Shown: positions 11,667 through 57,142 of the stretch, piece by piece | Numbering within the stretch: the stretch's first letter is position 1 | Layout of the letters: each line of letters starts with the position of its first letter | Source of the DNA: Sphagnum compactum | Taxonomy: Eukaryota | Assembly (NCBI GenBank): GCA_965153455.1 | Contig: OZ234493.1 | Span: 13,568,213 to 13,632,212, forward strand | Length of the DNA: 64,000 nucleotides | Reading direction: 5' to 3' | Program-made: the position numbers and the translations under genes | Notes under the pieces: model-generated | Told to the model about the DNA's origin: nothing | Databases searched by the model: none | What the model saw: the letters and a program-made list of their open reading frames with translations, nothing else

Positions 11667-13013
11667 TTTTTTTCGCTGGAATTGTTTGCTTGTTTGCTGT
11701 GTGATCGATTATCCATCTGTTGGTAGCAATAGCACTACACTTTCTGTTGTAACCAAAGCAAACAATCGTGGAGGTGAGTTTAGGTGTTTAGTTTTTCTTT
11801 TTGGGGTGTGCGGGAACGTGTTGTGTAGATCCAAGTTTGGAGCTTGTCTTGTTTGGAGATCGAAGCGTTGAAGCTTTGGACATTTTGTTGTGGACATTTG
11901 ATCAAAGTTTGGAGCCTTTTTTTTTTGGTTTGGTTTGGTTTGGTGTGCTACGTGTTTTGTTTAGTGCAAAAATGCTCTTGTTTTGCGCGGAGGATCGAGC
12001 GCAAGGTTGTAATTTTGTTGGAGAAGCGATGATGATGAGAAGAGCAAGGAACTAACGCAGGAGGAGGAGAAGCCGGAGCTTTCTTAGATGCTCCTGCGTG
12101 TTGGACTCGCAGTCATTTTTTTCGCTGGAATTGTTTGCTTGTTTGCTGTGTGATCGATTATCCATCTGTTGGTAGCAATAGCACTACACTTTCTGTTGTA
12201 ACCAAAGCAAACAATCGTGGAGGTGAGTTTAGGTGTTTAGTTTTTCTTTTTGGGGTGTGCGGGAACGTGTTGTGTAGATCCAAGTTTGGAGCTTGTCTTG
12301 TTTGGAGATCGAAGCGTTGAAGCTTTGGACATTTTGTTGTGGACATTTGATCAAAGTTTGGAGCCTTTTTTTTTTGGTTTGGTTTGGTTTGGTGTGCTAC
12401 GTGTTTTGTTTAGTGCAAAAATGCTCTTGTTTTGCGCGGAGGATCGAGCGCAAGGTTGTAATTTTGTTGGAGAAGCGATGATGATGAGAAGAGCAAGGAA
12501 CTAACGCAGGAGGAGGAGAAGCCGGAGCTTTCTTAGATGCTCCTGCGTGTTGGACTCGCAGTCATTTTTTTCGCTGGAATTGTTTGCTTGTTTGCTGTGT
12601 GATCGATTATCCATCTGTTGGTAGCAATAGCACTACACTTTCTGTTGTAACCAAAGCAAACAATCGTGGAGGTGAGTTTAGGTGTTTAGTTTTTCTTTTT
12701 GGGGTGTGCGGGAACGTGTTGTGTAGATCCAAGTTTGGAGCTTGTCTTGTTTGGAGATCGAAGCGTTGAAGCTTTGGACATTTTGTTGTGGACATTTGAT
12801 CAAAGTTTGGAGCCTTTTTTTTTTGGTTTGGTTTGGTTTGGTGTGCTACGTGTTTTGTTTAGTGCAAAAATGCTCTTGTTTTGCGCGGAGGATCGAGCGC
12901 AAGGTTGTAATTTTGTTGGAGAAGCGATGATGATGAGAAGAGCAAGGAACTAACGCAGGAGGAGGAGAAGCCGGAGCTTTCTTAGATGCTCCTGCGTGTT
13001 GGACTCGCAGTCA
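11667..13013 (+). repeat. Perfect tandem triplication, 3 x 449 bp, covering the CHUP1 5' leader and start codon
   Basis: Units start at 11667, 12116 and 12565. The ORF track shows identical translations at 449-bp offsets. Each unit ends in ...TTAGATGCTCCTGCGTGTTGGACTCGCAGTCA. Confidence 0.97.
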
Positions 13014-21323: not shown

Positions 21324-21814
21324 CACCAGAGAGAGTTTCTTACTGGTTCAATCTGGCTCTGATCTTGTCTCGCTTCACAACTGCTTCATCTGCAAAAGGA
21401 GGAGATCATAAATTAAGAGAAACTATGACTGCTAATTCCTCTTCCATGCGACCAAGATGCTCAAGAATCTGAGAAAGAACTTCATATTTGGATCATTCTA
21501 TCTCGAGCAATTTTTGCCTCCCTCTTTGCTATTCATCTGCTGCATCTATAATGAGCCTTCCCTTATGAGATTCTTTCAACACACTCAGCAATTCTGGTTT
21601 CCAGATATATCAGAAGCAAAGATGCTGGGAGCTTCTTAAGCTCTCTTGAGCACAAGCTAAAGTTGAAAAACTCTCCAAAATTCTAAGGAAAACTGCATGT
21701 CACATTTCTCAGACATTGGAAACTGGACCTCTTTCCTCTGATATGCAAACACAAACAGCAGCAGCAGAGGCAAAACATCACAAGAGAGAAGAAACACTAC
21801 TAACAAACTAGGTA

Positions 21815-22438
21815 TGTACTCTGAGACCCAATTGCTACAAACTCTTCTTGACCTAATCTGCACAGTTTCTGCACAAGAAGAAATGATTTGATTCTGAGAA
21901 TGATTTGATGTTCACAATGAAAGACTGGTTGCATGAACTACATAATCACCAAGCTAAGATTTAGTACTCTGAGGACCGAGTCGGACCCAATTGCTACATA
22001 CTCTTCTTGACCTAATCTGCATAGTTTCTGCACAAGAAGAATGTTTTGATTCTGAGAATGATTGGATCTTTACAGTGAAAAACTGGTTGCACGAACTACA
22101 ACATGATCACCAAGCTAAGATTTACTACTCTGAGGACTGAGTTAGAACCAATTGCTACATACTCTTCTTAACCTAATCCGCATAGTTTCTGCACAAGAAG
22201 AGCGGATTTGATTCTGAGAATGATTCGATCTTCACAATGAAGAACTGGCTGCATGAACTACAACATGATCACCAAGCTAAGATTTAGTACTCTGAGATCC
22301 AATTGCTACATTACTCTTCTTGACCTAACCCGCATAGTGTCTGCACAAGAAGAATGGATTTGATTCCGAGAATGATTGGATCTTCACAATGAAAAAGTGG
22401 TTGCATGAACTACAACATGATCACCCAAGCTAAGATTT
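21815..22438. repeat. Tandem repeat, 4 x ~155-160 bp, upstream of the WDR13-like CDS (probably in a 5'UTR intron)
   Basis: CCAATTGCTACA.ACTCTTCTTGACCTAATC.GCA.AGTTTCTGCACAAGAAGA...GAACTACA..ATCACCAAGCTAAGATTT repeats at ~21828, ~21987, ~22148 and ~22299. Confidence 0.9.
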
Positions 22439-25201
22439 GCTGCTATCATGATTTCGGATGTTGTGAAGAAAGATCCAGCTTACAGAGAACCAGAGGATGG
22501 AGAAAGCCAAGATCTGCCGATCAGTATGAGAATCGTGACCGAGAGTAGCAACCCCAATAATGGGTGGCAGCGGCTTTCATCGTAACTCATCATCAAAAAA
22601 TCTCGCTCTCGACTTTCTCGAGCCGCAACATAAACACCCACACCCACCACCCGAGCTACCCAGATTCTTCCAAACTACTTCAAGCAAAGTTAAGTTCCGT
22701 TCCGCCGCTCAAACTCTCTTAAGAGGAAAGAAAAAATCCGCAGTTGCTTGCACTACCCACAGGATGTTTTCTATACACAAAAAATGCTCGGAGCCATGAA
22801 ACCATTATTGCAATAAAATTCTCGATCGGCTTCTTCTTCTTCTTGTTTTTCTTCAGCTTCTTCTTGTTCTTGATCTTATTCCGGCTTCTTCTTCTGCTTC
22901 CACAAAACAGAGATTGTGCACAGAGAATAAACCACTCTGTTCTATGGAATCGTCACAAAATCTTACAAACAACAGATTGTTCTCGGAATTCTTTTTCTGC
23001 AAAGAAGAAAACACTGGATAGTCTTTACCACTGTTGGGCGGTTCTCTCTCTCTCTCATAATAGCAGTCCCTGGCTATTATTGCACAGTAGGCTACCTCAG
23101 GATTTTGCTCTTTCTGTACTAACGATGTTTCGCACATCTTGTGTGGAATGAGTGCACTGCTTAGATGAAACAGTGATGGCACATTTTGTGTAGAATGAGT
23201 GCACCACTTAGACTAAACATACGATGTAAAGGTTCAGCAAAAATCACCAAAAATGGAATTGTCTTGCTCTATGTTGAAGCATTCGTTACAAGTTATGTAC
23301 TTAAACCATCTGAACACATGTTACTGACAAGAGATGAAGCGAGCCTAGCTCCACACATCAAGTTTGGTAAACTCATGGAATGGATATATGGTATACTATA
23401 TGATATGGAATATATCAAGTTGGTAAACCATGGAATCGATAGCCATATGTAGTCATGCATAATCAGGCTAGGCAGTACGGGAATTAAAAGTGTTCAAACT
23501 TGATGAAGAAGATGGAATATCCAGAACAAAGATATCAAATCAGGAGGCTCATCATTCCAAGGTCAGAAAAACAAATGAATCGTAAAACTCATGAAGCTGC
23601 TCCTGCAGTACTTCTGAGGACAGAAAACTCTCCAACCTTCCTGAAGAAAACTGATAAGGATAGCATGACATGGATAAAGGAGTCCCAGAATGAAAGAAAG
23701 TTTCGGTTATGTTCTGAACCCATGCAGACAGGACATCTAATTCTCCTCATGGCTGAAGACTGTACGAGAGGGTTCTAGAAACCCAGGTCTAGAAACCTTC
23801 CAGAAACCCATTTCTAGACACCACTGATTTCAATCTAGAGACATGTGAGGATTAAAGATGGCATACAAAATGCTAAATGCTTTCTGAACATTTCTGAGCA
23901 ACACAAATGGCTCCATTGAAACACGTGTCTGGGTAAATAAATGAGCAATCTACTTACATGAATTGAGATGGATATCCAGCTCTCGTTTATGGCCTGCATA
24001 GAAGAACTGCTATCATCAACTGGGGAGCAGTTAACTGACAAATATGTGGTGAAATCATGGTACATTGTACAACAGTTTCCCTGACTTTGAAAGTCATTTT
24101 CTTGCCCTAGTTTTTCCAATGTTCTACTGTTTTCCAGTTGAACCTTAAAAAACAGTGGTAAACCTAGACTTGACATTTCAGTTCAACCAAAAACCCCGCA
24201 AAAAATGATTTCCTCATGTGCGCAAGGCTTGTGCAATGTTGTACTGACAACTGCAATCCAAGAAAAGCCATAGTGACAAAAAAAAGCCTGGCTTTGGAAC
24301 TAGGTGCATGATCTAATCAAGTAGTGCACTTCTGTAGACTCAGACTACAGCATTCTTTCTTCTGTCCACAGTATGTTGGGCACTGTTGACAGGCACAAAA
24401 GAACTACCAAATCCAACAATAGGATGGCACCAGGATTCCTGGCTTCTTCTTACAGGCCCAAGTTAGCTTCAGAATTTGTCACAACACAGGCTAATCTTCA
24501 AAACCAAGAATGCTCTACAGAAGAATCCAATTGTTCTCACTGCCTCGAAGCACTTGTTCAAGTCAATAATGAGGTCCATACTCCATACTTTGCAGCAAAC
24601 CTAACATAGGTTTTAAAAGGAGCCACAATACCATTGTTGTATTGTTGTTATACAAAGCACAAGGCCTTCTATGACCACCCTGCCTGTAAAAGAGCATGGT
24701 GCAAGAATCAGTAACCCTAATTTTCACCCCAACCTGGATGTCCTTACACTTCAATTATGCTCCTCCTGATAAGAAAAACATAGAGAACTCAGAACCAACA
24801 ATCACCTAATAGACCACAATTTAAGATGTTTAGAAGTCAAAGCCCCTTCAAACTTCCGACGTTTGAAAATCATGCTCTAAAGTGATAACAATGCTCAGGA
24901 ATGGGCCTACAACTGGTGATTCCATTTAGTTTGAATCTCATAAATACAGATGCATACTGGGGTGCTGATTCAGCAACTCTTGTATGCAACTGATTTATAG
25001 CTCACTATATCTGGAATCAAACATGAGTATGTCCAAATTCATCTGAAAGGTGGTGTCAGATGAATGAAGGGTAGGGTGGGTCTTCCAGTAAAATGTGAAC
25101 TAGTCCAACAACCTGTGCATGACATCATATCTATCTGGAGCTAATCATGGTAGGAGCAAGAGACAGGACAGGGTGAGAATACTGACCAAGCATGTGACAG
25201 G

Positions 25202-42744: not shown

Positions 42745-43296
42745 TGCTGGACCTTGGAGCTCTTCCACAACAAGCCAACATTAGAAAATCTTGCTTTCTC
42801 TAACAAGAGGACATGAGATCAATTAGCTCCATCCATGAGCCTGTGCAGCTCACAGATGTAGTGTGGGGGGGGGGGGAGATGTACAAATTAGCTCCAGAAG
42901 AAAATCAAACCAACCCAAAACTTCAGTTTCAGCTTCTCTCTCTCAAAGACCCATTTTGCCTTGTGCTTTTTTTTCTTCATTCCCAAACTCCCATTTTTCA
43001 CAGTGTTCCAGCTTACAAATGATGATATGAGAAAGCTCAGAGAGAGAGGGAAAAAAAATCCAAGCTATCCAAAAATTTAGTCAACTTCTTTGTACACTCG
43101 TTTCTCTCAAGCTGAACGAATTTCTCATCTTCAAATTTGTTTTTTGCAGCGGCGCTTCCTGGATTTCCTTCTTGGTTGCATCTTTACAAGTCTGGCACCC
43201 TAAAAAGCTTTCAAAACAAGATCATCATCAACTCACCTCCAAATTCCAGCAGGATACAACTAGCAGCTTCTCCCCCCATCAAGATTCTTTCTTGAT

Positions 43297-43331
<35 letters not shown>

Positions 43332-44262
43332 CTCTCTCTCTCACCAAAGAAGACTTTGCATACCTCCTGCTGTAAAGTATAACAACCCATCAGCCATTTC
43401 TCTTCAGTTCTTGCACATGGAGGGGGGGAAAGTTCAAAGCTTTTATAGCAAAAGTTTTGGCCAGAAAAGACAAGAACTCTTTGGAAACAAAAACTCTTGT
43501 GCTGAAGATCAAGGAAAAATAGAAGGAAATCCTTTTGAAAAAAAGACCTTGCAAAGTTTGCTCTTCTCTCAGTAAGAAGATCATTGTGAAGAAGAACCAC
43601 CACCACCACCACCACCACCACCATCACCCACCAAAACAAAGCTCTCCTCAACTAGAATTCCAACTTTGCTCTGGAGTAGCACAAATTCCTTGATTTGGGT
43701 GGCACACAAAAACACTAAAATCTTTGCTCCAAATCTCCTGACCAAATTTTCAGGGGAATTTTTTTTGTTCCCCCTTTCTTGTTTGTTGGCCTTGCCTACT
43801 ACCAAGGCCCTTAAGGATATTGTGTTTAGGTTCATTATAGAGTAAAGTAGCTTAAGGGATTTTGACCCCCCTTAGTTAATATACTAAGGTCTATTTTTAT
43901 ATTATATGAGGATTTTTGAAACATGATCTTTTGGCTTGTGTGTTAAAACTTGAGATTAGTTATTATAGAGTTACTAGTGGGTACCCGTGACCTTCGGACA
44001 CTCTGAAGTCCCCCGGTTTCTTTAAACCGAGACACACACAAAGGCGCAAAGCAGCTAATTTTATTTTTAGTTTATTTATTTTTTGTGGTGAAAATCCATT
44101 GAAAAGTCCCCCATGAAAACATACATGGTGAAGCGAGCGTTTTCAGACTTGTTGTAGAAGACAGAGTTATAGAAACAGTGTCAAACTGGCTAAATTTACA
44201 GCAATATTCCTTCCATCAGAAGTGCTTTCCAATTTGCAATTCAAGAAATTTCTTCAATGCAC

Positions 44263-44346
44263 CTTGGCTGTAATGAGCTCACATTGCGACCCCTTTCCAG
44301 ACGCCAGAACTCCAGAAATCATAATCCTCAGGGCCTCCATTCTTGC
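44263..44346 (-). pseudogene. Captured single exon of a plastid-type adenylate kinase (P-loop exon)
   Basis: AG|GCAAGAATG...GCCAAG|GT gives 28 codons ARMEALRIMISGVLASGKGSQCELITAK, similar to the plastid ADK motif LKIMISGAPASGKGTQCELI. It is below the ORF-track length cut-off. Confidence 0.8.
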
Positions 44347-44705
44347 CTGCCGAGGCTTAAACCAATTTCGCTAAAAAAAAAAAAAAAAAAACCAATAAGT
44401 CGAAATAGAGCATGAATAATTGATGACAACATGTTATTATGATGTTGCAACAACAGCAGCGCTTTGAAATCTTGTTAACAAAAAACTCGAATTGAATTTT
44501 CTTTAAATTTTAAAAAAAAAGTGATTATGAAATGACCCACCTTTGTGATGAAGTTGTTTGGAAACACTGAAAAATCCTCACACTGAAATCCTGACAAAAG
44601 CCTCAGAACTTCAAACCTTTCATAAAGTACATGCAAAGCATGTTGAGAAAGAATTTCCAAGTTCTCTAATGGCATCTTCCAGGAATTCCAAGCAAAGATT
44701 GCCTT

Positions 44706-44870
44706 CTAGAAACAAAATAGCAAGCCTATTGTCCACATCCGGAATGTCCATACCGACAGACTCGAATCATTCGTATTGGGAACCGTTAGTCTCACTTGTT
44801 CCACTGGCGACTCGTCCACGTTCCCACCCTGTTCCAATGCTTTCAGTCCTTCCAGTCCCTCCCCCGGACT
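44706..44870 (-). pseudogene. Captured N-terminal fragment of an OPT-family oligopeptide transporter
   Basis: DESPVEQVRLTVPNTNDSSLSVWTFRMWTIGLLF matches the conserved OPT N-terminal motif SPxEEVRLTVPxTDDPxLPxxTFRMWxLG; it ends at a stop codon. Confidence 0.82.
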
Positions 44871-45024
44871 GCACAAAACCAAAACCCACATCAATCCATC
44901 TTCTTCTTCTTCTTCTTGTTTTTCTTTGTCTTCTTTGTCTTCTTCTTGGCATCCCCCACTTTCCACAACAATCACAACAAAGGTGCAAATGGGTGTGACT
45001 GGCAGCAGTCAAGGAAAGACATAC

Positions 45025-45623
45025 CCAGACTGGTAGCAGCAATGGGGTCCCGGTCAAATCGATCAAATATCACATCTACTGGTTGGCCAAGCTCTGTCTC
45101 TATGATTCTCACAACTGTCTCTGACTCAAATGGCGGCACTTGATCCTTCTCACAGGAAAAACAAACATCCAACCTTCAGCAAAAATAAAAAATTATTCCT
45201 AAATCTCTCCTCCCTGATGAAGAGGAAGAAAAAGATCATGAAAAGAAAGATCATGTGGAGCAGCTGCAAAAAGACCATGAAGAGAACAACCATGCAGAGC
45301 TGCAAAGAAGAGCCTGAAAAGAAAGATCATGCAGAGCTGCAGAAATATTGTGAAGAGAAAGATGGTCATGTAGGGAAGCAGAAAAGATCATGGAGAGAGA
45401 TCATGAGCTGCTGCTGCTGCTGCTACTGCAAAAAGATTGCAATTTGTACTATTGACCTGCAGCTCTGCCAATTCATCGACATACTCCTGAGCAAGAATGT
45501 CAACATGAGTGGAGAATTGTTGCCCAATTTTGATGAAAGTTGGCCCCAATCGCAGCAACCCTTCCTTCACCCATTTCGCAAGTCTCTTCCTCTTCTCCTT
45601 TTTGTTCAGCTCTGTCATACCAC
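45025..45623 (-). pseudogene. Captured fragment of an ABC1K8/OSA1-like atypical kinase (two exons plus intron)
   Basis: Exon 45623-45457 GGMTELNKKEKRKRLAKWVKEGLLRLGPTFIKIGQQFSTHVDILAQEYVDELAELQ and exon 45145-45025 [41 protein letters not shown]. The kinase core (from QVH onward) is absent. Confidence 0.88.
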
Positions 45624-45642
45624 CTGCAAAACAACCTACAAC

Positions 45643-45810
45643 CAAACTCTCCTCCTCCACCAATCTGCTGCTGCTGTTGCTAATCCAAACTCTCCTCCTC
45701 CACCAATCTGTCGCTGCTGTTGCTAATCCAAACTTCTCCTCCTCCACCAATCTGTTGCTGCTGTTGCTAATCCAAACTTCTCCTCCTCCTCCAATCTGCT
45801 GCTGCTGCCA
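45643..45810. repeat. ~42-bp minisatellite, about 4 copies, inside the Helitron
   Basis: CAAACT(T)CTCCTCCTCCACCAATCTG.TGCTGCTGTTGCTAATC repeated in tandem. Confidence 0.8.
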
Positions 45811-47363
45811 TTCGTCCTCCTCCTCTTCCATCATCTTCTTCTTCTTTCGGGATGAAGAACTTGGATGGATGGATGACGGGACGGATGGATGGAAAGGACG
45901 ACCACCCAAGGATATTATATAAGTAGATAATAATATCTTGAATGATTTTGGTTTTTCTTACAGGATTTCCTTAAGATTATGTTTTTAAGATTATTTGAGT
46001 TTCCATAATTCTTCTTTTGCCTTAAGATACTTCTTAATATTAGTAAATGGCAAGGCCACATGTGACACCCCCTTGTTTGCTTGTTTGTTTGTTTGTTGTG
46101 GAAATCTGATATGGAAGAAGAGTGAAAAGAGCTAAGTTAGTAGTAGTAACTAGTAAGCCTTTTCCTGTGATGAGGAAATGGGGGAAGCAAATGGGCTAAC
46201 TGAACTGAATAACAGACAGATTCCCATAATAACATTATTATTGTTATTATTATTATTATTATTAACACCTATCTACCACTCTATTGTATCTCCACAGTTC
46301 ATTTTTTCCCTACCAATTTTGTTGTTTTTGACCCAAGAAAAAAGGGGAAAATTTTGCAAAATTTGAATTTTGTTGGGGAAAAAATTGCCAAATTTTTAAT
46401 ATCACAAAAATTGAAGAAAAACCCTGATCTTCACTCCATACTAAGGGAGGGGAAACATGCAATCACTTTGTACCATAGTATTAATTAAGTACCCCCCATA
46501 ATAGTAGTAATAATTACAACTAGTGTAGCTTGTGCTGTTTGGCCTAAGTTTTAATTTTTTTAAATTTTCTAATTGTTTCTTTTTTTTGGTGGGTGAATTT
46601 TTGCCACTTGATGACCAAAAAAAAAAAAAGTTTCAGTGCAATTCATACAAAGGATTCATTTTTCATGCAAAAAAATGCACCTCAGTTGACAGATTCCAAG
46701 GAGTTTTTTTTCTTCTGAAATAGCCACATTTAGACAGTGGGTTCCAGCAAGATGCTTAAATTTGTTTAATCTCCTCTCTGACCTGTAGCCAAATTTGGCT
46801 AATTCCTCTTGTGTATGATTGCCAATGTGGGTGTGGTATATCACAAAATTGGAAAAAAAAAGAAATAAACAGAACCCAAATTACAACAATGCTCAAAAAC
46901 GCTTTCCTTCTATAATTGTATCCGAGAATTACCATTAATCCCATTGGGCGAGTAGTAGTTGTTGAATACAAACATCTCTTATTCAATCTACTAGACCATT
47001 TGACAAATTCATATTTTCGTAACAATCCTAAAGAACCAGTGGCAAAATCATTAGAGATTTTTTTTTGAAAAAAAAAGCGGTGGTGATGATGTCTAGAACA
47101 ACTTAAGGAACACATGCAAACATTACAAGAACACCACCGTAAAATTAACCATTCAGAAAGGCACATGGAATGTTAAGACACAAAAGATTACATAGTACAT
47201 GATTCTTCTAACACCCACACCCACACGATTCTTCTAACACCCACCGAGGATTTCAGAAAACAGATTAGTGGAATGGAAGATTGCTCACGCATAGAGTACA
47301 AAACTTCCATCACCCAGTTGAGACATGTCGCAGCGGCATGGCTATCACCCACTTCTCTCAACA

Positions 47364-50300
47364 TTAGGATACCGGGAGTGTAGTAGCTTTTGACTTCCAA
47401 ATGGAGGCAAGCGTAGTGCCAGAGCGAGACTTATGGATGCGTCTGCTCCCATCTTTTTTTCCCTTCTCCTCCTCCTCCTTTCTGCCATTGTTTCTCATTG
47501 CTTCCTCTAAGTCCAAGGTCTCTGCGGCAAAGGTGCTCAGAGGAGCAGAGTGCGACAATTTGGTGTCCTTTTGGCGCTGCTCCCGGAAATGCTGGAGCAG
47601 CTTTTGAGCTTTGTCCTGGCCTCTCGGATTCCCAGTCACTGAGAGTGACACAAGAGCTGGAATCACACCCTCACGCAACACTAGCTGACTATGCTGCATG
47701 CTATTAGTACAAAGTAATAGCAGGGTGGCTGCGGCATGCTCCTTCTCCTTGGTACTACTTCCTGTCTCAAGAATCTCAGCAAGCACAGCAACACCACCCT
47801 CAGTTTTTGCTATTGTGGATTGGCCTTCTTCAATGGAAGATAGATTGTATAGGAGTGCCACACATTTCTCTACAAGATCAACCTTATGGAGGCTTAGCAA
47901 ATGGACTAGAATTGGGATAGCACCCGCCCGCACAACACGGGGCCGATTACCCAAGAATATGGTCAGATTGTACAAAGTGATTAACGCATCCTTCCTCGCC
48001 TGGTTGGAGCCTGAGATTAAGAGCTGCACCAGCAGTGGGATTGCTCCTGATGAACCTATACATGATTTATTCTCGTTCAAACAGGAGAGGGTCAGCAGCG
48101 CTGCCACTGCAGCTTCTTTGGATGCACGACTCGTTTCAGCTTTCAGCAACTCTACAAACAAGGGCACTCCTCCTGCACCCACCACAGCTGCCTTGTTCCT
48201 GCACACAGTTTTGAAGCAAGAGAGAAGAAAATCAGCTTGCTACCCAATGTGTGATTTTCCCAAACACTAAGTTCTGGTGTCTTATCTGCTGATTTCATTT
48301 GTGTGGGCACGTCACATCATCCTACATGATCAGACGGATGCATCAAAGGCAGTTCCATCATATCTGTGACATCAAAGTAAACCCTAGGCCCTAAAACCTT
48401 CCTCAGCATTCTTGGGATTTTGTGTGTTCTCCAGATTTATATCCCGGGTTTTAAGAAAATGGGTTTTTTTTTACCTGTCATCATTAATAGCAACATTGAG
48501 AAGTGCGAGGGCCCCAACTTCCTGAGCACCATCATCATCTGTATTGATGGTTGTACAGAGAAAATCCACAAGTGCTGGAATGGCACCGCCATCTCCAATA
48601 TGAGCCCGTGCCTTTGCATTGTTCTTTGCTAGAACTCGGATTTCTTCTGCTGCTTGGCAGCGAAGGTGTGGAGACCCATCAGTGAGGTCTGCCACCAGTC
48701 CCTCCAAATGTTTCAACCATTGCTCATTGTTTAGCTCTGTCATCTCTGCTCCTCTCTCTACCAGCCCATATGCTGGTGCCAGTCCGGCCTCACAGACATC
48801 CCTGCTATCTCTTATATATCCAGTTCCCACCCTACAGTTGAGGTCTTGACCCGAGGGATCCAATGCCTCTGCACTTCCTTTTCCATCTGCTTCATTTTCA
48901 GCATCACCAGCAGGCAAGTGATCATTGTCCATGGCTAATCTTGCCTCCTTCAGCTGTTCTCCACTTCGCACCTTTGTGAGTTCTGAGGTCAACTTGATCT
49001 CCCACCTGCATGAAGTGACAGGGGAAGGGGGTGAAGATGGGGGTTCTGGGACACCCATTCCATGGGCCTCACACCAGCTGGCAATCAGACCCTTGACACA
49101 GTAGTTGGGAGTAAGATTGAGGTGCGACAACCTCTGCCGAGTCTTTGGACATGTGACATGGCCTTCCTGTCAAAACCCAACAATGCAAGAAACCAGTTTG
49201 ACAAATCTGTCACCTTCACCATTCATCAATAAACTGGCTCCACATGGTGGATGTACACTAGGGTTAAGGGTTTAGGGTTTAACAAGAATACCAAGGTCTG
49301 GCAGTAAGAAAAAAATAAAAATAAATCTCAATGTCGCCAGAAACTTACTTGGAACCACTTTTCAATGCAGACTCGCTCATATGTTTGGCCAGAGGCCACT
49401 ATCACAGGGTCTGACATAAGCTGTAGTGATATGGGACAGCGCAGTTCCTCTGGTGGCAAAGAGGTCCTTGGAGTTCGTGGTGAACTGGAACAACGATCTC
49501 GTTCAGCAAGATTATCCACAGATGGGGTCGACCCAAGCTCTGAACAATGGCATTCAGCACAATGGTGGGATGGGAAGGAAGGAGATGATAGACCATCTGT
49601 TTCTTCCCCAATTGAAAGCTTGCCAGACAATCCCCAGCCCCAATCAGAAACAGGCCACCTTGCAGGTTCTCCCACACCTTGCAAGACTTCCGTCTCCATG
49701 TGCAAAATGTTATTGAACTTCTTCATCAGCTGGAGTATGTGGCGCGTAACCGCCTCTTTCCGACTGTCTCCTTCATGCCGGGCTTTCTCAAGAAGCCGCT
49801 TTAGGGCATGTTTTTCGACTAGTATAGAATCTGCCGATACCAAGCCCAGCTGGATCACCACCTGACTGAAGGTCTCCTGCTCTGCTTGAGGGTTTTCATA
49901 TCGATCTCCTTTCTGTTTCTGCAATAGCAAAGAAATGATGTCTGCTCCAATCTGCTTCTCACTTGGATCCAGCTCAAATTGGGTTTGGCTCAACTCCACT
50001 TGAATCTCCAAAATCTGCACAAACATCTCAGTTGGTGAATTTCAATCTCCATCTTTGTCATTGCTTTATTTCCTCTCTTTTCTTGAGCTGCCTGGACATT
50101 CATCACTTTCTCTGTTTCATTTCCTTTTATTCAATTGTCTGCCTTGTTAACTTCTAAGAAGAGTAAGGGCATGGGAACTCTGCAGGTACAAACCTGAGCA
50201 CTGAGTTCCTGCGGAACCAGAATTGAAACCCGTCTAAGACTCAACTCCAACCCTTCTTTGACTTCCTGAAATCGTGAGAGCATGGTCTCCCCCTTGATTG

Positions 50301-52646: not shown

Positions 52647-53249
52647 CTGTGTGCCTCCTCCTCCTCCTTCCCGGAGCTGTGCACAAACAAGAAGAGCATT
52701 CACAAACTCAAGCAATCCAAGCAAATCAAGCAACCAATCCTCGTCGACGAGCTTCAAAAACTTGAGAAAAGAGAGACAAAACCACCTCGGGAAAAAAAGA
52801 AGAAAAAGAAGCTTTCAAACAGACCCAAAATGAATTCTCCACAAAGCCAGAGACATGGAGAGAAACAAAAAACACAAACAAACAACTAGGAGAAGCAAAA
52901 TTGGAGAAGCAAACTGCGAATTAGAACAAGAACGGAAACAAACCAAAATTTGAAGAATTTTTATTTTTTTGGTTTGTATGCAGAATGAGTTGTGGGAGAT
53001 TTTTGTGGTACCTACGATTGTTTGGGATTGCTGCCGCTGCTGCTGCTGTGGAGAGGAAGAAGAAAGAGGAGGAGGAGGAGGAGGTGTTGCAGCAGACGAA
53101 GCGCGCGGTGCGCGACGTCCCAGACGCAGTGCAACGCACCAAAAGAGCGTTTGTCTGGATCCTTTCCCTTCCCTTTCCTTTCCTTTTGTGTTGGGAGGGG
53201 GTTTCCAGGCCGCTCCCAAGGCTATTTTTTTAATTAATTAATTAACTAA

Positions 53250-53692
53250 TTTTGGTCGAATTCTGGCTATTGAAAATCTTCTCCAAAAGCACTGGTCCAT
53301 TTTGTTTGTGATTATGTAGGCAACAAAGTGAGAATGATGCATCCACAGGAAGATTTAGCCAAATTTGATTAAAAGCTAAATATATAGAAAAACATCTGGC
53401 GATTTTTCTTCAACTTTGGTCGAATTCTGGCTATTGAAAATCTTCTCAAACAGCACTTGTCAATTTTGTTTGTCATGTTGGCACCCAAGTGGCAATGATC
53501 CTCCACAGGAAGATTTAGCCAAATTTGATTAAAAGCTAAATATATATAGAAGAAATCTGGCAATTTTTCTTCAACTTTGGTTGAATTCTGGCTATTGAAA
53601 ATCTTCCCAAAAAGCACTTGTCCCATTTTGTTTGTTATGTAGCCGCCAAAGTGCCGATGATCCATCCACAGGAAACATTTAGCCAAATTTGG
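53250..53692. repeat. Tandem repeat, about 2.7 x 163 bp
   Basis: TTGGTCGAATTCTGGCTATTGAAAATCTTCTC.AAA.GCACT.GTC.ATTTTGTTTGT...TCCACAGGAAGATTTAGCCAAATTTG at ~53252, ~53416 and ~53577. Confidence 0.85.
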
Positions 53693-53700
53693 TTACAAAC

Positions 53701-56700
53701 TGAATATTATATCACAAATTCCTTTTTGTAAAAGAAAAAATTTGCAAAATTTGCAAGATTTTTTAAAGGATAAATTTCAGAAATATCAAACCTCCAAAAT
53801 TAGAAAATGAACATTTTGGTCACAAATTTTGTTATCAAAAAAAGAAAAACATTTGATAAATTTTCATGAAATTGCCTTTTTGGGGAGAAATTTTCACCAC
53901 ATTTCATTCTCATAGCTTTTTAGTTTTAGGGCAAATTGTCACAAGTTCTTTATGTTGTAAAAAAATTATCAACATTTTGTTTACAAACATGTTGTCAATT
54001 AATGTTAAATCTCTTTTGGGATGATTGCTAATGATACTACATTAAAAAAACTAGAAAAAAAAGAAGGGGAAAAAAAAAAAAAACTATCTCTCATTCGAAT
54101 ATAGTTTCTAATAGTTAATATGTATTAGTTGAACTAAATATTATTTAATATTTATTCCTCAAACCTAATAGGTAATGTTTAATATTTATCAATTGAACAA
54201 AATTAAGCAATTGAAGTAGCCAAATAATTTTTAAAAATTCAGGTAAAAGGCCAAAAAAAAATATAAATAAAATAAAATTGGATGCAACCTTAAGCACACC
54301 CGACTACTTTTGTGATTTGGTTTGTGTGTTGACAATTAATCTTAAACCCAAAAAATTGATTTGTTTGTAAACATTTGTGTAAAATTTTGCACACACACCC
54401 AAATAAATAAAAAAATAAAAATTGTAATGTGTTTGTAAATGTTAACAATAACAAAAGAAGCTACATGATTATTACATCATGATGTGTTCATGTATTAACA
54501 ATAACAATAGAATTAAGCTACAAGATGATTAATAATAAGCATACTTAGGGATTTTTGTAGAAATAAAGCTTAGCATGTTTCATTTTTCTTAATTACCTAT
54601 GAATTCACATGAGAAAGAAAAACACGTTGTTTTATTATATTTCCCTTTGTTTTTTTTAAAATGCAACTTGAGCATTATTAGTTGTTTAGTATAGTATGAA
54701 TGGTGAATAAAAAATTAATTAATTACAATGATGTACAATAGTCTTTTTTGTGAGCATTATTACACAAAACACAACAAAGGGGGAAATTTTTTGAAGCCAC
54801 GAGGGAATAAAGGTCGTTGCCACTATATATATATATATATATATATATGGAGGTGCATCAATGACTAGGTACTTAAATTTTGGGTTTATTGACAATTTAA
54901 AAATATAAGCCATGCAATTTTTTTAATTGCAATATTTGAAACCCTTTCTACAAGACATCAATAAAAAAATACCAAAATAATGGAATTAAAAGTCAAATTG
55001 TGAAACAATTCATATGAAGACAAATTCATCAAAGCACAAAACCAATCAAATTGCATTGAAAAGGAAAAAATAGGGGGCAAAGGATTACAAATTCTATTTG
55101 CCCCCCCTCCCCCCATCCTCCCCAAAGGAAAAATGATTCTGGCTATTGAAAATCCTTTAAAAACTCGATTATAGCACTTTCAACTTTCTTTTAATATAGC
55201 TATTTGGCTATAATATAGGAAATAATAATTCAGTGATTATTTTTCTCACAAGTTGTGTAGTTTTTTTTCCTCCTAGTGCAAATTTTGCTAATTAAATAAG
55301 GAAAAATTAGCCAACAATGCTCAAGCTGCTCCTCTTAGATAGTGAATTTTAATTTTAATTTTTAATTTTGGGGATTGGTGAATTTTTTCCAGCATAAATT
55401 CAGTGATTTTTTTCTTTAAAATTATGTCATTTTTACTGAAAAATTTATTTTTATTTTATTTTTGACAAATGTGCTTAAAATCCAACCAGTTTTTCTATAT
55501 CTTTGGGAAATTTTAACTTAATTTGTATATCATAAAATTAGAAAAAACAAACCCCGATTTCCACCTCAAATGGAATATTCTGTCAAAAATTCTTTTTCCT
55601 AAAGAAAAAAATTTGTGAAGTTTTAGAGAGAGAGAGAGGTATATTTATTTATTTATTTATTATTTAATTTTAACAAAATTTGAACCTTAAACATCAAAAA
55701 TGAATATTATATCACAAATTCCTTTTTGTAAAAGAAAAAATTTGCAAAATTTGCAAGATTTTAAAGGATAAATTTCAGGAATATCAAACCTCCAAAATTA
55801 GAAAATGAACATTTTTGTCACAAATTTTGTTATCAAAAAAAGAAAAACATTTGATAAATTTTCATGAAATTGCCTTTTTGGGAGAAATTTTCACCACATT
55901 TCATTCTCATAGCTTTTTAGTTTTAGGGCAAATTGTCACAAGTTCTTTAATTTGTAAAAAATTATCAACATTTTGTTTACAAACATGTTGTCAATTAATG
56001 TTAAATCTCTTTTGGGATGATTGTTAATGATACTACATTAAAAAACTAGAAAAAAAAGAAGGGAAAAAAAAAAAAAAAAACTATCTCTCATTCAAATATA
56101 GTTTCTAATAGTTAATATGTATTAGTTGAACTAAATATTATCTAATATTTATTACTCAAACCTAATAGGTAATGTTTAATATTTATCAATTGAACAAAAT
56201 TAAGCAATTGAAGTAGCCAAATAATTTTTAAAAATTCAGGTAAAAGGCCAAAAAAATAAATAAATAAAATAAAATTGGATGCAACCTTAAGCACACCCGA
56301 CTACTTTTGTGATTTGGTTTGTGTGTTGACAATTAATCTTAAACCCAAATGATTTGTTTGTAAACATTTGTGTAAAATTTTGCACACACACCCAAAAAAT
56401 AAAAAATAAAAAATTGTAATGTGTTTGTAAAATGTTAACAATAACAAAAGAAGCTACATGATTATTACATCATGATGTGTTCATGTATTAACAATAACAA
56501 TAGAATTAAGCTACAAGTTGATTAATAATAAGCGTACTTAGGGATTTTTATAAAAATAAGCTTAGCATGTTTCATTTTCTTAATTACCTATGAATTCACA
56601 TGAGAAAGAAATAACACGTGTTTTATTATATTTCCCTTTGTTTTTTTTTTAATGCAACTTGAGCATTATTAGTTGTTTAGTATATAGTTTCAAAGTCAAA

Positions 56701-57142
56701 ATGGTGAATAAAAAATTAAATTACAATGATGTACAATAGTCTTTTTTTTGTGAGCATTATTACACAAAACACAACAAAGGGGGAAAAAATTTGAAGCCAC
56801 GAGGGAATAAAGGTGGTTGCCACTCTATATATATATATATATATATGGAGGTGCATCAATGACTAGGTACTTAAATTTTGGGTTTATTGACAATTTTAAA
56901 ATAAAAGCTATGCAATTTTTTTAATTGCAATATTTGAAACCCTTTCTACAAGACATCAATAAAAAAATTACCAAAATAATGGAAATTAAAAGTCAAATTG
57001 TAAAACATTCATATGAAGACAAAATCATCAAAGCACAAAACCAATCAAATTGCATTGAAAAGAAAAGAAAAAAAAGGGGGGGCGAGGATTACAAATTCTA
57101 TTTGCACCCCCTCCCCCCCTCCTCCCCAAAGGAAAAATGATT
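53701..57142 (+). repeat. Local direct duplication of ~1.44 kb (53701-55138 and 55701-57142) with a ~560-bp spacer
   Basis: Both copies start TGAATATTATATCACAAATTCCTTTTTGTAAAAG, end CCTCCCCAAAGGAAAAATGATT, and are colinear and highly similar, including an (AT)n tract. Confidence 0.92.

Follow-up and report, generated by a model that had tools for sequence, protein, structure and literature searches.

A non-autonomous Helitron carrying pieces of unlinked host genes in a moss genome

Organization of the element and its cargo

The stretch analyzed here is a 64-kb window of contig OZ234493.1 from the moss Sphagnum compactum, and all coordinates given below are positions in this window. An initial annotation, made from the letters alone, had read the minus strand of the interval 43974-45927 as a Helitron with canonical ends (A|TC...CTAG|T) holding exons of three unrelated host genes, all in one orientation. 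On the evidence of read alignments, protein and domain searches and a scan of metagenome contigs, we conclude with high confidence that this interval is a canonical, non-autonomous Helitron that carries pieces of unlinked host genes and belongs to an abundant moss family. Judging by the best protein hits, this family is probably a Sphagnum one. The features of the element, which is read throughout on the minus strand, and those of the repeat in which it lies are collected in Table 1.

The element starts at 45927 with TCTACTTATATAATATCC, directly preceded by an A at 45928, and its opening TC (TCTACTTATATAAT) is that of an HLE1-type Helitron. At its other end it finishes at 43974 with ...GGTCACGGGTACCCACTAG (in longer form ...CCGAAGGTCACGGGTACCCACTAG); the final CTAG agrees with the CTRR consensus for Helitron 3' ends, and the next base, at 43973, is a T. 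The two ends are unrelated in sequence and form no terminal inverted repeats (TIRs), the repeat search having returned no inverted pair at the ends. Neither the list of open reading frames (ORFs) nor Pfam revealed a RepHel ORF within the element, which is therefore classed as non-autonomous, and Rfam gave no match at E <= 0.1 within 43000-47000.

Between these ends, all cargo pieces read on the minus strand and come from at least three or four genes, in line with the co-oriented fragments of unrelated genes that had been proposed. The first piece consists of two ABC1K8 exons with the intron that separates them. Together the exons match contiguous residues 134-233 of P0002, a 696-residue ABC1 kinase that comes from Sphagnum according to its source, at 92-93% identity, and a protein search with exon 1 returned 797 ABC1-kinase hits, many of which are named ACTIVITY OF BC1 COMPLEX KINASE 8. 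These identities, the Pfam ABC1 match and the GT..AG intron (Table 1) bear out the earlier identification of this piece. The second piece, annotated as the N-terminus of an oligopeptide transporter (OPT), also proved to be one: its relative P0124 is a full-length OPT protein of 790 residues, again from Sphagnum according to its source. The frame of the OPT piece hits a stop at 44706, and for a 76-residue ORF at 44475-44705 no related sequence turned up among longer proteins.

The last piece is an adenylate-kinase P-loop fragment, recognized through a Protein Data Bank (PDB) search with its 38-residue ORF, residues 12-36 of which match chain residues 4-28 of maize adenylate kinase (PDB 1zak, E=1.3e-4). 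Pfam returned no match for five of the six element ORFs submitted, including those of OPT, adenylate kinase and ABC1K exon 1, which are too short for the models. The kinase fragment had been described as an exon with both splice sites. While its P-loop homology and GT donor hold, its AG acceptor is probably borrowed: the 111 nt at 44469-44359, which cover a poly-T run and the AG before the kinase exon, recur in the metagenome locus L024 (the loci are introduced below), where they run into a different exon with a Pfam Abhydrolase_1 match (E=8.2e-6, alpha/beta-hydrolase fold). Because this stretch adjoins a hydrolase exon there, the AG in front of the kinase exon is probably not the kinase's own. 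The stretch is thus probably a fourth captured fragment, non-coding in nature, and the kinase piece would begin only after 44359.

Table 1. Features of the Helitron and of the repeat that it interrupts (window positions)
Feature	Position	Strand	Details
Non-autonomous Helitron, whole	43974..45927	-	1,954 bp; 5'-TC...CTAG-3'; between A (45928) and T (43973), without target-site duplication
Conserved 5' terminal region (left terminal sequence)	45797..45927	-	131 nt; high depth, recurrence; inner edge set by joints 44006->45796/45797
Four tandem copies of a 44-nt unit, between 5' end and ABC1K fragment	45648..45822	-	repeat family D17; 73-98% identity
Captured ABC1K8 exon 1	45457..45623	-	AG acceptor 45625-45624; 54/59 identical to P0002 residues 134-192
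Kept ABC1K8 intron	45146..45456	-	GT..AG, 311 nt; sequence and RNA splice reads
Captured ABC1K8 exon 2, followed by GT donor	45025..45145	-	Pfam ABC1 E=2.2e-9; 39/42 identical to P0002 residues 192-233
Captured OPT oligopeptide transporter, N-terminal piece	44712..44870	-	47/53 identical (89%) to P0124 residues 54-106; PF03169
Intron-like piece	44359..44469	-	89% identical over 112 nt to L024:2318-2429
Captured adenylate-kinase P-loop piece	44263..44358	-	ATG 44340; homology 44337-44263; GT donor 44262-44261
Stable sub-terminal hairpin CGGTTT-aaag-AAACCG	44012..44031	-	38 nt from 3' end; DNA fold -6.5 kcal/mol
3' terminal 33 nt (right terminal sequence), ends CTAG	43974..44006	-	last 24 nt exact in at least 122 metagenome loci; sibling joints 44006->45796/45797
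MITE-like high-copy host repeat, one half	43780..43973		depth 280-370 per strand
Interrupted host repeat, other half	45928..46103		depth 245-270 per strand in bin 46000-46103, dropping to 0 past 46103

Empty sites and multiple copies of the ends

The strongest evidence for the boundaries comes from copies of the surrounding sequence in which the element is absent. We aligned Hi-C DNA reads and polyadenylated (polyA) RNA reads from the same organism, as well as contigs of two related organisms (B and C), to positions 43400-46500 at 80% likeness. A joint from 43972 to 45927, which skips exactly 1,954 bases with one ambiguous base, was found in 59 Hi-C DNA reads (23+36, with 41 different starts), in three contigs of organism B and in one contig of organism C, while 190 reads with a loose end at 43973 run on into sequence resembling that past 45927. 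These joints display an A|T target with no target-site duplication. They are paralogous copies of the repeat that flanks the element, present in the same organism and in both relatives, and it is in this paralogous form that the search for an empty site succeeded. Together with the multi-copy ends described below, the joints recover the proposed A|TC...CTAG|T boundaries to the base, and the termini are therefore not a chance match.

The flanking repeat itself is read at a depth of 245-370 per strand, versus 0-7 in the unique DNA beyond it, and the metagenome locus L040 holds an uninterrupted paralogue of about 80% identity in which both halves are continuous. With GGCCTTGCC and GGCAAGGCC standing in inverted orientation near its two ends, the repeat looks like a miniature inverted-repeat transposable element (MITE). 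It is also transcribed from the plus strand, with an RNA depth of up to 476 and a DNA depth of up to 370 per strand. A U-box/ARM gene occupies 47364-50041, and the insertion is on its downstream side, about 1.4 kb away; the ORFs of the window as a whole are of plant type (U-box/ARM, LSM, WD40 and others).

Multiplicity of the ends is seen both in the organism's own reads and in environmental DNA. DNA depth (two strands) reaches 133+136 at 44024-44127 and 149+155 at 45792-45895, whereas unique flanks have 0-7; across the termini it ranges from 130 to 370 per strand, where the highest bin also includes the flanking repeat. Eight reads and three contigs of organism B contain joints from 44006 to 45796/45797, which represent siblings whose 131-nt 5' end is followed directly by the final 33 nt. 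We also scanned metagenome contigs of the Joint Genome Institute (JGI), using the 24 terminal nt of the 3' end as the query, and found exact matches in at least 122 moss-metagenome loci (L001-L122). Among the 122 listed loci the base after the 3' end is T in 112, A in 8 and C in 2; after merging of near-identical sequences, 90 distinct downstream flanks are left, and in 87 of these the first base is T. Beyond the ~35 nt that they share, the listed loci divide upstream into several subfamilies unrelated to one another. The 5' end TCTACTTATATAATATCCTTGG is found again in 11 metagenome loci, where the flanks upstream of it differ, and several siblings are very short (~200-230 bp in L029/L077, L063 and L083/L118), another measuring 729 bp (L064). 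Raised read depth and metagenome loci thus agree that the termini are multi-copy, as a mobile element's should be.

The family also has candidates for a source of transposition proteins. Of five ORFs tested, four are parts of a RepHel protein, on the same strand as the shared 3' end and no more than 2.5 kb upstream of it: Pfam reports Helitron_like_N for an ORF of L066 (E=2.5e-48) and PIF1 for ORFs of L011, L057 and L053 (E=8e-54 to 8e-62).

These data bear on two explanations in which the interval would not be a Helitron. One is that the MITE-like repeat, with inverted ends at ~43808 and ~46050, is what moves, and that the gene fragments were captured between its TIRs, as in a Pack-MULE or 'Pack-MITE'. 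The inverted GGCCTTGCC and GGCAAGGCC near the ends of a very high-copy repeat would suit such an element, as would the similar ACAAACAAG stretch found outside both of its ends. However, the 1,954 bases are missing from other copies of the repeat, whose joint falls exactly at 43972|45927, L040 is uninterrupted, and the ends of the insert recur apart from this repeat, in the 90 flanks just mentioned, with RepHel ORFs accompanying the same 3' end. Given, in addition, that the insert ends are not inverted and that the empty-site joint lacks a duplication, we hold this explanation to be highly improbable. Even less probable, to the point of having next to no likelihood, is a chance mosaic of pseudogene debris, such as filler DNA at a double-strand break, with ends that resemble those of a Helitron by accident. 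It is true that the motifs A|T, TC and CTAG are short, that the 3' region as a whole folds no better than shuffled sequence, and that the 64-kb window contains no sibling: searches of it with the 18-nt 5' end and with the 16-nt 3' end, allowing up to three mismatches, hit a single copy of each, and BLAST of ends, flanks and cargo against it gave low-complexity matches only. Accident does not account, though, for empty-site joints of exactly the insert's length, for at least 122 exact copies of a 24-nt 3' end that is followed by T in most of those listed, or for a conserved 5' end and multi-copy depth over termini and cargo alike.

Several further observations concern the sites and the arrangement of family members. 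In five loci (L009, L028, L066, L068 and L111) the family 3' end stands directly before sequence like window positions 43844-43782 of the host repeat; four different upstream sequences occur among these five, which therefore represent at least four separate elements, and this suggests that the repeat is a recurrent target for the family. The motif TATAAT is present at +5 to +8 downstream in 15 of 86 distinct target flanks among the listed loci, within an AT-rich stretch of ~12 nt, as compared with none of 84 at +31 to +47 and 3.7 +/- 1.9 in shuffled flanks (0 of 2000 shuffles reach 15). The flank in the window (43973-43960) has TATAAT at +7, and the motif resembles the 5' end of the element (TCTACTTATATAAT). 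Head-to-tail junctions of the form CTAG|TCTACTT (CTAG|TCTACTTATATAAT) are found in L010, L094 and L095, and also in L024, L036, L037 and L096, with L010 and L024 holding arrays of several short Helitron units.

Donor genes, transcription and origin of the cargo

For the ABC1K8 piece, the RNA reads point to a donor gene in the same organism. The polyA RNA is spliced from 45144 to 45456 in 57 reads with 38 different starts, the ends reading CT..AC on the plus strand. At four sites in ABC1K, the RNA letters differ from this copy in every read (82/82 at 45052, 71/71 at 45059, 63/63 at 45077 and 77/77 at 45114). In the DNA reads these same letters are found in 1 of 30, 1 of 29, 1 of 7 and 1 of 7, respectively. 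Being universal in RNA and a minority in DNA, they assign the RNA to a separate ABC1K locus; this organism, then, has a distinct ABC1K donor gene that is expressed and spliced. Copies of ABC1K borne by elements are several-fold commoner than the donor, and their expression is undetectable at the four sites.

The cargo pieces are not equally abundant. With the two strands summed, DNA depth is ~213 (125+88) over the OPT piece, ~119 over the kinase piece, ~37 over ABC1K exon 1 and 3-6 in the middle of the ABC1K intron, values that we use as rough ratios, given that Hi-C reads cover unique flanks at a depth of just 0-7 and that depth in contigs does not measure copy number. These ratios fit OPT and kinase pieces being borne by more family members than ABC1K is. 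A gene model from what its source gives as another Sphagnum species, P0126 (321 residues), contains the element-specific junction upstream of OPT (44 of 48 residues identical) and, twice, a peptide from the 5' region of the element, along with further unrelated sequence; it has no ABC1K match and no Pfam domain on record, and is probably a mis-annotated mosaic of transposon sequence. The unequal depths, the lack of ABC1K in P0126 and the fragment shared with L024 give indirect support to a stepwise gain or loss of cargo. The sequential capture proposed in the initial annotation is to that extent supported.

Transcription of the family was assessed from the same RNA reads. First mates map almost exclusively to the plus strand over 44232-45895, which, as in usual stranded libraries, denotes minus-strand RNA in the sense orientation of the element. 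Sense RNA reaches a depth of 36 over the family's 5' region, where all 28 reads at 45856 differ from this copy, and sense reads of other copies cover the kinase fragment. Since the informative RNA reads differ from this copy, they were assigned to other loci, and short-read summaries contain no RNA joint between cargo pieces. In DNA, too, there are many sites (43830, 44089, 44771 and 45034 among them) where nearly all other reads disagree with this copy, and stops break the reading frames between and inside the cargo pieces. We infer that it is an inert, ageing passenger.

It has to be asked whether the element, or a sibling of it, might instead be a functional chimeric gene that is transcribed and spliced into a new protein, an instance of exon shuffling that became fixed. 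The fragments are indeed co-oriented with their splice signals kept, a sibling locus is annotated as the protein P0126, and the sense RNA covers not only the 5' region but also a stretch that does not come from the donor (44440-44751, depth 20-76). Such a gene is nevertheless very unlikely in view of the broken frames, including the stop at 44706 behind the OPT piece, of the P0126 model with no recorded Pfam domain, and of the RNA letters themselves: at the informative ABC1K sites, 0 of 63-82 RNA reads carry the letters of this copy, and those at 45856 are foreign to it throughout.

A non-autonomous Helitron with these properties most likely arose as follows. Acting in trans, the RepHel protein of an autonomous relative would recognize the 5'-TC and 3'-CTAG ends, and standard rolling-circle transposition would place the element into an A|T site inside the MITE-like repeat. 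Host fragments may have been gained as DNA, by read-through or template switching as is known from maize, and would have come to lie between the 131-nt 5' end and a 3' end of ~150 nt, all in the orientation of the element. Cargo-bearing derivatives would then have been amplified.

Some of the results, nonetheless, weigh against the interpretation of the interval as a canonical, gene-capturing Helitron. The first concerns the hairpin that the initial annotation had placed before CTAG. Helitron 3' hairpins usually lie 10-12 nt from the end. A stable hairpin does exist here (44031-44012; z = -3.46, with 2 of 200 shuffles folding equally well), and it is seen in many sibling 3' ends while being missing from some subfamilies. 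However, this hairpin, the sole stable one, is separated from the end by 38 nt and thus sits beyond the usual distance; folding of the terminal 33 nt is weak (z = 0.27), and that of the last 87 nt does not surpass the level of shuffled sequence (z = -0.57). Secondly, of 9 distinct sibling 5' ends only 4 are preceded by A; the other 5 have a G before them, and two of these 5 are head-to-tail CTAG junctions (L010/L094 and L095). Thirdly, the RepHel partners are located in metagenome contigs and not in the organism's own genome, whose siblings and donors are visible as read depth and joints and not as sequences. The ABC1K, OPT and adenylate-kinase cargo is present in 0 of the 122 listed metagenome loci, 80 of which have flanks of up to 2.5 kb and the rest shorter ones. 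Likewise, the contigs of organisms B and C end at the repeat, and not one of them bridges the orthologous site. Finally, of the intact donor genes that the initial annotation had predicted, an expressed ABC1K donor and, in another Sphagnum protein set, a full-length OPT relative were found, but an adenylate-kinase donor gene was not identified.

A more far-reaching scenario, which we regard as speculative and rather unlikely, is that the family was recently active in peat mosses, and that dozens of sense OPT/adenylate-kinase copies, with fewer bearing ABC1K8, are transcribed and feed gene models like P0126. The family could then contribute to exon shuffling or to small-RNA feedback on the donors in a land plant whose life cycle is dominated by the haploid phase, and the TATAAT 5-8 nt downstream would reflect a choice of target by those RepHel contacts that read the left terminus.

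Relation to known elements and other repeats of the window

Most work on the capture of genes by Helitrons concerns maize, together with a few other angiosperms, bats and fungi. For maize, the passages of PMC4683698 that deal with non-autonomous Helitrons cite stepwise capture (Dong et al. 2011) and chimeric transcripts, and those of PMC11417382 cite gene-fragment Helitrons (Barbaglia et al. 2012). As far as these passages describe them, the maize elements resemble ours in their 5'-TC and 3'-CTRR ends, in insertion into A|T without duplication, in cargo of several unlinked gene pieces taken up as DNA, with introns kept and in the orientation of the element, and in shared ends around a variable interior. 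The moss host, the dominance of very short members (~200-230 bp) and the distance of the stable hairpin of this element from its end (38 nt) set the present family apart from those of maize, of which chimeric transcripts are a feature.

Another group of elements with comparable cargo are Pack-MULEs and other TIR transposons, which carry mosaics of host-gene fragments with introns kept and become amplified, and which have long TIRs and target duplications of 9-11 bp. The mosaic, intron-containing cargo of the present element is like theirs, whereas its ends are not inverted and its insertion is not accompanied by a duplication.

Rolling-circle elements are themselves not new to bryophytes. Helitrons in mosses are cited, via the Physcomitrella genome paper, in a passage of PMC4683698, and abundant Helitrons in a liverwort are noted in one of PMC13182070. 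The closest case is HelenSM92, an HLE2 (Helentron-type) family of Sphagnum magellanicum with a captured GIY-YIG domain, reported by HELIANO in the part of PMC11417382 that describes it. Like our element, it is a rolling-circle element that captured foreign sequence in a peat-moss genome. As characterized in that part, HelenSM92 is autonomous, has short terminal inverted repeats, uses TT sites and captured a protein domain; the element described here, in contrast, is of HLE1 type (TC...CTAG, A|T), has no inverted ends, is non-autonomous and carries exon and intron fragments of host genes.

Our full-text searches, which covered the main text of openly available papers, brought up no account of Helitrons that captured fragments of host genes in bryophytes. 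The expectation that such cargo is little described in a bryophyte-like genome agrees with this result and with the Sphagnum names of the best relatives of the fragments. Thus, while the capture mechanism is already known, its occurrence in bryophytes is apparently undescribed. The family would extend Helitron gene capture to an early-diverging and ecologically important plant lineage, and annotators would have tangible grounds for treating chimeric gene models such as P0126 with suspicion.

The window contains several other repeats. Three perfect tandem copies of a 449-nt unit occupy 11667-12864, with 300-nt cores that are 100% identical and ORFs that repeat a single 93-residue frame. A tandem array of ~160-nt units (families D5-D7, 65-92% identity) is present at 21778-22448, just downstream of a 476-residue ORF that by eye appears WD40-repeat-like. 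Lastly, an AT-rich region (GC content 25-29%) holds a duplication of ~2 kb with 83-97% identity (53761-54977 and 55759-56975), beside which lie tandem units of 160 nt (53225-53715).

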